A DNA stretch of 64,000 nt from Escherichia coli (lineage in GTDB: Bacteria; Pseudomonadota; Gammaproteobacteria; Enterobacterales; Enterobacteriaceae): the NCBI RefSeq assembly GCF_044324785.1, contig NZ_CP172127.1; one strand, written 5' to 3'. A program made the position numbers and the translations under genes. Below the pieces are notes generated by a model. That model was not told the DNA's origin. It did no database searches and saw only the letters and a program-made list of their open reading frames with translations. This document shows, piece by piece, positions 15,698-17,884 of the stretch (positions are counted from its first letter, which is position 1; each line of letters begins with the position of its first letter).

Positions 15698-17884
15698 ATG
15701 ATTACTCGTATTCCTCGTAGTTCTTTCTCTGCAAATATTAATAATACAGCCCAGACAAATGAACACCAAACCCTGAGTGAATTGTTTTATAAAGAACTCG
15801 AGGATAAATTTTCTGGCAAGGAGCTGGCGACGCCTCTATTAAAAAGCTTCTCAGAGAACTGTAGACAAAATGGTCGTCATATCTTTAGCAACAAGGATTT
15901 TGTCATTAAATTTTCCACGTCCGTTTTACAAGCTGATAAGAAAGAAATTACGATAATTAATAAAAACGAAAACACGACACTCACTCAAACCATTGCTCCA
16001 ATATTTGAAGAATACCTGATGGAAATTTTACCTCAACGCTCAGACGCTCTTGATAAACAAAAATTAAATCTAAAATCAGATAGAAAAGAAAAAGAATTTC
16101 CAAGAATTAAACTTAATGGTCAATGTTATTTTCTGGGGCGACCCCAAAACCGTATAGTATGCCGACACATTGCTGCACAATATATTAATGATATTTATCA
16201 GAATGTTGACCACAAACCCCATCAAGATGATTACTCTTCAGCTGAAAAATTTCTCACTCACTTCAACAAAAAATGCAAAAACCAGACTTTGGCGTTGATT
16301 TCCAGCCGTCCTGAGGGGCGTTGCGTTGCTGCCTGCGGTGATTTCGGGCTAGTTATGAAAGCATATTTTGACAAGATGGAATCAAATGGCATCAGTGTTA
16401 TGGCAGCCATATTATTGGTGGATAACCATGCTTTGACGGTCCGGCTAAGAATAAAGAACACAACTGAAGGATGTACCCATTACGTGGTTTCGGTTTATGA
16501 TCCAAATGTAACTAACGATAAAATAAGAATCATGAGCGAAAGTAAAGAGGATATTAAACACTATTCACTGATGGACTTTATGAATGTAGATTATAGCCTC
16601 CTGAAATGGTCAAATGATCATGTTATTAACCAATCTGTTGCAATAATTCCAGCACTTCCGAAAGAACAGCTATTGATGTTAAAAGGATCTGTGGATGAAA
16701 TAACCCCTCCATTATCACCTGCAACGATGAATTTGCTCATGGCAATTGGTCAGAATCACCAACTTACGCAACTGATGATTCAGCTCCAGAAAATGCCAGA
16801 ACTACATAGAACAGAAATGTTGACTGCCTATAATAGTATTAACCTGCCAGGCTTATATTTGGCTATAAATTATGGTAATGCGGATATCGTTGAGACTATT
16901 TTCAATTCACTGTCAGAGCCTGGATATGAAGGATTACTCTCGAAAAAAAATCTCATGCATATTCTTGAGGCAAAAGATAAAAATGGTTTTTCTGGATTAT
17001 TTTTAGCGATATCACGTAAGGATAAAAATGTTGTAACCTCGATTCTGAACGCCTTACCTAAACTGGCCGCAACACATCATTTAGATAACGAACAAGTGTA
17101 TAAATTCCTGAGTGCCAAAAATAGAACGTCCAGCCATGTTTTATACCATGTTATGGCGAATGGTGATGCCGACATGCTGAAAGTTGTTTTGGACGCGTTA
17201 CCTTTGTTAATTCGCACATGTCATTTGACTAAAGAACAGGTACTCGATCTCCTGAAGGCAAAGGATTTTTATGGTTGCCCAGGACTATACCTGGCGATGC
17301 AAAATGGACATAGCGATATCGTGAAAGTTATTCTCGAAGCATTACCCTGTCTGGCCCAGGAAATTAACATTTCAGCTTCCGATATTGTAGATCTTCTGAC
17401 CGCTAAAAGTCTTGCGCGCGACACGGGTTTATTTATGGCCATGCAGCGCGGACATATGAACGTTATTAAGACTATTTTTAACGCATTACCCACTCTGTTT
17501 AATACGTTTAAATTCGATAAAAAAAATATGAAGCCCCTCCTCCTGGCAAATAATTCTAATGAATATCCCGGTTTGTTTTCAGCGATACAGCATAAACAAC
17601 AAAACGTTGTAGAGACGGTTTATCTTGCTTTATCTGACCATGCACGCCTGTTTGGATTTACTGCTGAAGATATTATGGATTTTTGGCAACACAAAGCGCC
17701 ACAAAAATACTCTGCCTTTGAGTTGGCTTTTGAATTGGATCACCGGGTTATTGCTGAATTAATCCTTAATACGATAAATAAGATGGCTGAAAGCTTTGGC
17801 TTTACGGATAACCCTCGATACATTGCGGAGAAAAATTATATGGAAGCTTTACTCAAAAAAGCATCTCCCCATACCGTACGCTAA
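15698..17884 (+). CDS. arpA: Ankyrin-repeat protein with an N-terminal ShET2/OspD-like domain (function unknown)
   Basis: 728-aa ORF; markedly AT-rich relative to neighbours; C-terminal half contains repeated ankyrin-like units (e.g. [72 protein letters not shown]); 3' end overlaps aceK convergently. Confidence 0.85.

Follow-up and report, generated by a model that had tools for sequence, protein, structure and literature searches.

The 32-nucleotide overlap of arpA and aceK in Escherichia coli marks the junction of an acquired gene with the aceBAK operon

Genes and overlap at the arpA/aceK locus

In a 64,000-nucleotide (nt) stretch of Escherichia coli DNA (contig NZ_CP172127.1; "the window", in whose positions all coordinates are given), the genes arpA and aceK converge and share their last 32 nt, both stop codons included. 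The arpA open reading frame (ORF; plus strand, 728 amino acids) ends with TAA at 17882-17884, and the aceK ORF (minus strand, 578 amino acids) ends with TGA, seen as 'tca' at 17853-17855. A preliminary description of the locus had pointed out this 32-nt convergent overlap of the 3' ends, and the sequence, the ORF list and RefSeq all bear it out. That description overlooked what the overlap represents, namely the place where an acquired gene was joined to aceK. Most probably, the overlap is a structural by-product of the joining of arpA to the aceK end and not a dedicated regulatory element.

Both ORFs are intact, lie on opposite strands, are annotated as coding sequences in RefSeq and have the family support expected of real genes. 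The minus-strand protein is AceK (NCBIfam equivalog NF002804, E = 3.5e-284). The AceK chains 3LC6 and 3EPS in the PDB have 578 residues as well, and the aligned chain 3LC6 has the same tail as the protein of the window; chain 4P69 stops at residue 571. ArpA matches the Pfam family PF07906 (Toxin_15, the ShET2 N-terminal domain) over residues 130-379 (E = 3.2e-96; 322.6 bits, cut-off 25), and ankyrin repeats follow this domain. The Toxin_15 match places ArpA in the ShET2/EspL2 family of type III effectors. The gene is called arpA in K-12 and is now named espL4 by PGAP ('type III secretion system effector EspL4'). A structure search for relatives of ArpA among solved structures gave nothing beyond generic ankyrin repeats.

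The overlap is already annotated and catalogued and is no newly discovered regulatory device; indeed, it has been part of the K-12 annotation for decades. In strain N3, which is 100% identical to the window, RefSeq annotates iclR, espL4, aceK, aceA and aceB with the same 32-nt overlap (locus L001; espL4 1599-3785, aceK 3754-5490). It likewise measures 32 nt in the RefSeq annotation of K-12 MG1655 and O157:H7, in three decayed arpA alleles and in one arpA allele that is 88% identical in protein. In K-12 it corresponds to NC_000913.3 4220301-4220332, as derived from the published coordinates and the 1737-nt length of aceK. The features of the locus are listed in Table 1.

Table 1. Features of the iclR-arpA-aceK region, in window coordinates.
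Feature	Position	Strand	Basis
arpA/aceK tail-to-tail overlap of coding sequences	17853..17884	both	sequence, ORFs, RefSeq
aceK, isocitrate dehydrogenase kinase/phosphatase, 578-aa form ending ...SVRYGEMLF* (asterisk, stop)	17853..19589	-	ORF, RefSeq, family match
arpA / espL4, 728-aa ShET2/EspL2-family protein, GC content about 0.32-0.43	15698..17884	+	ORF, Pfam, RefSeq
arpA upstream region, part of the insert, GC content about 0.28-0.33	15392..15697	+	composition, alignment
Left-hand junction, end of shared sequence (iclR stop, then CTTTTTC)	15382..15392		alignment with arpA-less alleles
Right-hand junction zone	17871..17890		homology to arpA-less alleles from 17872-17875 (BLAST); true breakpoint maybe near 17890
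A6/T6 homopolymer including the T of the aceK stop	17855..17860		rare A5 variant
iclR, convergent neighbour of aceK wherever arpA is missing	14557..15381	+	RefSeq, comparison loci
Primer ArpA1.r (TCTCCCCATACCGTACGCTA) site	17864..17883	+	exact match, wholly in the overlap
Primer AceK.f site	18244..18263	-	exact match

The arpA insert and its junctions

Between iclR and aceK lie about 2.5 kb of DNA with low GC content, which form the arpA insert. The GC content is 0.28-0.43 over 15450-17850, compared with 0.50-0.60 in iclR and aceK; it drops from about 0.55 (aceK) to about 0.37 (arpA) at roughly 17850 and goes up again at iclR. The arpA/aceK junction is present in 4103 of 5426 complete E. coli genomes, and 1309 of the 5426 have a direct iclR-aceK junction. 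Two arpA-less strains (L002 and L003) possess a 574-aa AceK that ends in ...SVRFV*, with its stop 16 nt from the convergent iclR stop. E. albertii has the AceK tail of arpA-less E. coli as well as a homologous spacer (CTTTTCGCCACTGATTTATAC versus CTTTTTCGCCTCTGATTTATAC). In none of 80 non-coli Enterobacterales aceK loci (E. albertii and 79 others) was arpA found. Furthermore, close arpA homologues occur in E. coli only; beyond these, the best matches in a set of 1.8 billion representative proteins have at most about 38% identity. The insert thus differs in composition from its flanks, is present in some genomes and absent from others, and has an intact empty site in relatives. Because the site is empty in relatives, close homologues are confined to E. 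coli and the GC content is foreign, the arpA-less arrangement is the ancestral one, into which arpA came as a low-GC insert.

The two allele types cease to be homologous at 15391 on the left side, where arpA-less strains have about 20 nt between the shared sequence and the aceK stop. On the right side, homology resumes at 17872-17875, that is, within the 32-nt overlap, with a possible shared 'ATAC' and a 4-nt indel at 17871-17874. The aceK frame runs through six codons of non-ancestral sequence (YGEMLF) before it meets TGA. The arpA frame, in turn, crosses into aceK-type sequence, and its TAA arises, with a shift of one base, on the strand opposite the conserved codons TTT AGC (Phe-Ser) of aceK. 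The 10 nt and 22 nt flanking the break add up to the 32 nt. Counted from the break, stops are met after 2, 11 or 23 codons in the plus frames and after 6, 7 or 12 codons in the minus frames. Since stops are met in all frames past the break, every combination of frames results in an overlap, and the actual pairing gives the shortest one. The overlap is no greater than expected by chance.

The comparison of the allele types shows an ancestral state in which aceK (574 aa, ...SVRFV*) and iclR converge with about 16 nt between them. In the arpA-bearing lineage, low-GC DNA of about 2.5 kb has taken the place of these 16 nt and of the last codons and the stop of aceK, leaving each ORF to read across the junction to the first stop on the far side. 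As a consequence, the mRNA of each gene would be antisense to the 3' end of the other mRNA.

The left junction has a weak terminator-like hairpin, with a T5 run, over the iclR stop (15359-15417 region); a 7-bp hairpin (GGGCAGA...TCTGCCC) comes directly after it inside the insert. The end of IclR differs as well: it is ...GGIR* in the arpA-less L002 and L003 and ...GGMR* in arpA-bearing E. coli and E. albertii (15373-15375), and this difference is linked to the junction. The arpA upstream region has a single promoter-like match (15489-15517), which is at chance level.

The aceK side of the right-hand junction was compared over 1716 nt in eight arpA-bearing and two arpA-less alleles. Nine differences are fixed between the two groups, and four of these fall within 16 nt at 17875-17890. 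Each of the four is a synonymous change in AceK; one is located in the arpA coding sequence and three are not. Moreover, arpA-bearing strains have the tail R-Y-G-E-M, which follows the pattern R[YF]Gx[LMV][KQ][QR]AG* of Klebsiella, Raoultella, Cedecea, Buttiauxella and others, and not RF[VTA]*, the tail found in E. albertii, E. coli without arpA and some Citrobacter. The likeness extends to the codons (CGG TAT GGG GAG ATG in the window, CGG TTT GGG GAA GTG in the other genera). On the simplest reading of these sequences, the incoming DNA may well have ended in some 38 nt from the 3' end of a foreign aceK, so that the overlap would have been ready-made in the donor. An arrival of the overlap by homologous recombination within aceK, from an enterobacterial donor, appears on balance a plausible refinement of the junction scenario. 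A generally higher divergence of the last 200 nt of aceK (92% versus 98%) was considered and dropped, as it proved largely specific to the window strain when more alleles were added; after this addition, just the 16 nt beside the junction remain conspicuous in the aceK end.

Transcription and variation at the overlap

The preliminary description had gone further and proposed that the convergent transcripts overlap, with possible antisense interference or transcriptional collision. No intrinsic-terminator-like site was found in or beside 17853-17884 on either strand, and the 3' ends of arpA and aceK do not share a bidirectional intrinsic terminator. On the plus strand, the nearest terminator-like site is located at 18373-18388, about 490 nt within antisense aceK. 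In the absence of a terminator and with overlapping coding sequences, a full-length mRNA of either gene runs antisense through the end of its partner. Apart from this, the overlap has no recognizable features: promoter and terminator scans gave nothing there and chance-level counts in general, RNA folds of the overlap are no more stable than those of shuffled sequences on both strands (z = +0.8 and +1.0), and an Rfam scan of 15300-19800 at E <= 1 returned zero matches.

Within aceK, two terminator-like hairpins with T-runs are present on the minus (sense) strand (18191-18174 and 18069-18056). These hairpins are possibly connected with the premature termination that was reported in aceK of BL21 (PMC5435950). 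The ratio AceB:AceA:AceK was reported to be about 0.3:1:0.003 (PMC5435950), and this ratio and the premature termination together imply that few aceBAK transcripts get to the aceK end. The arpA transcript was nil in BL21, where arpA is disrupted (PMC5435950), and in K-12 arpA carries an H-NS-bound 'promoter island'. Transcription reaching the overlap is therefore probably weak from both sides, and interference, if there is any, is probably minor and not a product of selection. Full-text searches of the literature turned up no data on reciprocal expression, mutual exclusion or RNase III for aceK/arpA, and the SMRT-Cappable-seq supplements mention neither gene.

The tails of AceK and ArpA are unprotected, despite the uniform sequence of the overlap. 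Depending on the allele, AceK ends in GEMLF*, GEIFY* or GEMLFE*. The tail GEIFY* goes with the arpA allele that is 88% identical in protein and keeps the 32-nt overlap. GEMLFE* arises in the A5 variant of the homopolymer (two of the 5426 complete genomes and some assemblies from read archives, L090-L092), in which ArpA has 545 aa, AceK has 579 aa and the overlap grows to 99 nt; both tails are thus altered together. Between genera, the AceK tail is hypervariable past ...RF[SC]VR[FY], and the tails of Salmonella and Citrobacter continue into sequence resembling repetitive extragenic palindromic (REP) elements. Tails made of repeat DNA were seen in Salmonella arizonae, Citrobacter youngae, C. werkmanii, Kluyvera and Pseudocitrobacter; in the loci L006, L008, L009, L014 and L015, the aceK ORF continues into ...RRPDKA.APPSG..., which is typical of REP elements.

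arpA itself is often damaged. Its central segment is kept in only 2006 of about 4100 carriers, which implies that about half of them have a 612-nt in-frame deletion (16838-17449, central ankyrin repeats; 524-aa product). No evident repeat was found at the breakpoints of this deletion. A frameshifted copy was also found, and in E. coli MS14387 an IS1 element is inserted about 260 nt before the arpA end (L087 1765-2462), with the 32-nt junction intact. Short ArpA fragments with other tails were discounted as products of frameshifted or noisy assemblies. The attempt to define a 'natural' ArpA C-terminus from distant homologues was rejected, as the alignments end at about residue 645.

Upstream of aceK, the annotated coordinates place 48 nt between aceA and aceK in the window (19590-19637), 182-183 nt in K-12 and O157:H7, and 124, 215 or 280 nt elsewhere. 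These differences probably reflect the copy number of REP elements. The spacer is thought to set the low expression of aceK.

Origin, use and relatives of the overlap

Could the overlap nevertheless work as a functional excludon, in which polymerase collision or RNase III cleavage of the RNA duplex lets aceBAK, when induced on acetate, repress arpA, or lets arpA transcription damp aceK? The coding sequences overlap with no terminator between them, and carriers differ very little in the overlap sequence. ExcludonFinder lists aceK-arpA among 165 convergent excludons of MG1655 (NAR 2025, PMC12288877). However, the criterion of this program is relative coverage (PMC12288877), which is nearly automatic for pairs with overlapping coding sequences. 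Little aceBAK transcription arrives at the aceK end, arpA is silent where it is disrupted in BL21 and H-NS-associated in K-12, and the literature searches gave nothing on reciprocal control. Furthermore, arpA is missing in 24% of the genomes and damaged in many with the junction unaltered, and the tails vary freely. We therefore regard a functional excludon as unlikely. With respect to the preliminary description, the overlap of the transcripts holds, given the intact convergent ORFs, the lack of a terminator and the ExcludonFinder listing, whereas interference or collision finds no backing in view of the missing reports of reciprocal regulation, the weak transcription at the aceK end and the loss or damage of arpA. 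Still less probable is that the insert changed the regulation of the glyoxylate shunt by its position and not via its protein, the overlap then marking a phylogroup-specific rewiring of aceBAK and iclR. In strains without arpA (about 24% of E. coli, presumably the phylogroups B2, F and G of the Clermont scheme), read-through from aceBAK would enter the iclR 3' end and could form a feed-forward loop; in strains with arpA, 2.5 kb of AT-rich, H-NS-associated DNA would take up the read-through before iclR.

The other alternatives concern the history of the junction. An overlap already present in the ancestor of Escherichia, followed in the arpA-less strains by a deletion of arpA that clipped the aceK end, is extremely improbable. 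The RYGEM tail resembles a widespread enterobacterial tail and can be read as the older form. Nonetheless, the RFV* tail and the homologous 16-nt spacer are common to E. albertii and arpA-less E. coli, and a deletion of arpA could not recreate this shared spacer. Tails of the type RF[TA]* occur in several Citrobacter, arpA lies beside aceK in 0 of 80 outgroup loci, and its composition is strongly foreign. A simple insertion of arpA-only DNA into the last codons of a resident aceK, by comparison, competes only with the ready-made import of the overlap and is a possibility we hold with some doubt. In this case, YGEMLF would be chance insert sequence, and the four synonymous differences would be due to junction-associated mutation or hitch-hiking. 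The resumption of BLAST homology at 17872-17875 and the possible 'ATAC' with its indel agree with a simple insertion, as does the fact that no donor with an arpA-aceK arrangement was found. It is at odds with four fixed, all-synonymous differences in 16 nt, three of them beyond arpA, and with the match of R-Y-G-E-M and its codons to the tails of other genera, which is unlikely to occur by chance.

A number of observations weigh against the view of the overlap as a neutral junction scar with an imported aceK end. The 73 nt at 17827-17899 are exactly identical in 3790 of the 5426 complete genomes, which could mean constraint and not recent common descent, and the excludon call was made in at least 50% of 58 MG1655 transcriptomes (PMC12288877), which leaves a regulatory effect some probability. 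Signatures of mobility are lacking: 15380-17900 contains no inverted repeats and only short, chance-level direct repeats, there is no target-site duplication at the insert ends, no mobility gene or tRNA marks the insert, and arpA is its only ORF with family significance. Homologue searches found no donor of the insert, and in the aceK 3' end each of the 80 outgroup loci is at least as close to arpA-less E. coli as to the window. E. albertii is the one species by which the rest of the genus, cryptic clades included, is represented. The case for the imported end itself is built on a stretch of 16 nt, a motif match of five residues and a small sample of alleles, and it is diluted by a second cluster of four fixed differences at 18021-18036. 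At three of these four, E. albertii sides with the arpA-bearing alleles, which suggests that this cluster is a small lineage-specific patch in arpA-less strains.

As regards the meaning of the overlap, its regulatory importance appears slight: the transcript overlap is catalogued, and the evidence favours a neutral junction scar. In evolutionary terms, an acquired gene and a core gene have each gained a C-terminal tail and an overlap of their coding sequences by reading across an insertion junction, and the last residues of AceK are dispensable enough for repeated rewriting. In practical terms, the most widely used phylotyping PCR for E. coli relies on a primer placed exactly at this overlap and junction. 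ArpA1.r and AceK.f give the 400-bp 'arpA' amplicon (17864-18263). Owing to the position of ArpA1.r, the assay reports 'arpA' although 380 of the 400 bp are aceK, and single changes under the primer give mistyping; single-nucleotide polymorphisms in the ArpA1.r site are a known cause of mistyping. The 'arpA' PCR is in fact a junction PCR. ArpA1.r was reportedly first described by Clermont in 2004.

The locus can be set beside several known systems. The 'arpA' marker of the Clermont quadruplex agrees exactly with the window in amplicon length and sequences; the marker is used as a presence/absence test, whereas here its primer is located on a two-gene overlap at an insert junction, a position that the available Clermont phylotyping papers do not discuss. 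The aceK/arpA pair of K-12 MG1655 (b4016/b4017) consists of the same genes with identical stop codons and an identical 32-nt overlap, and shows no structural difference apart from a few polymorphisms in the flanking aceK and the shorter aceA-aceK spacer of the window strain. ArpA has the Toxin_15 domain in common with the ShET2/EspL2 effectors (EspL, OspD3/SenA), which makes it a putative effector by sequence. The distant relatives (28-38% identity) align to ArpA only over about residues 130-645, whereas the C-terminal approximately 80 residues, including the tail encoded by the overlap, are specific to the E. coli gene. With convergent excludons, the pair shares the tail-to-tail arrangement without a terminator in between. 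However, the coding sequences themselves overlap here and not the untranslated regions alone, and well-studied excludons are known for mutually exclusive expression and RNase III processing, whereas aceK/arpA is known by its anatomy and an RNA-seq listing.

A further parallel is found in other Enterobacterales, in which aceK likewise abuts a convergent gene with little or no spacer. Their aceK and iclR genes overlap in 16 of 74 species: 13 have an overlap of 4 nt (loci L046-L057 and L079), and 3 have one of 47 nt (L021, L030 and L042). The gap has a median of 73 nt. Convergent ends that nearly touch or overlap are thus nothing unusual for aceK. In these bacteria iclR adjoins aceK, whereas in arpA-bearing E. 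coli it has been moved about 2.5 kb away. The convergent partner of aceK is thus the operon's own repressor gene elsewhere and an acquired effector-like gene in arpA-bearing E. coli.

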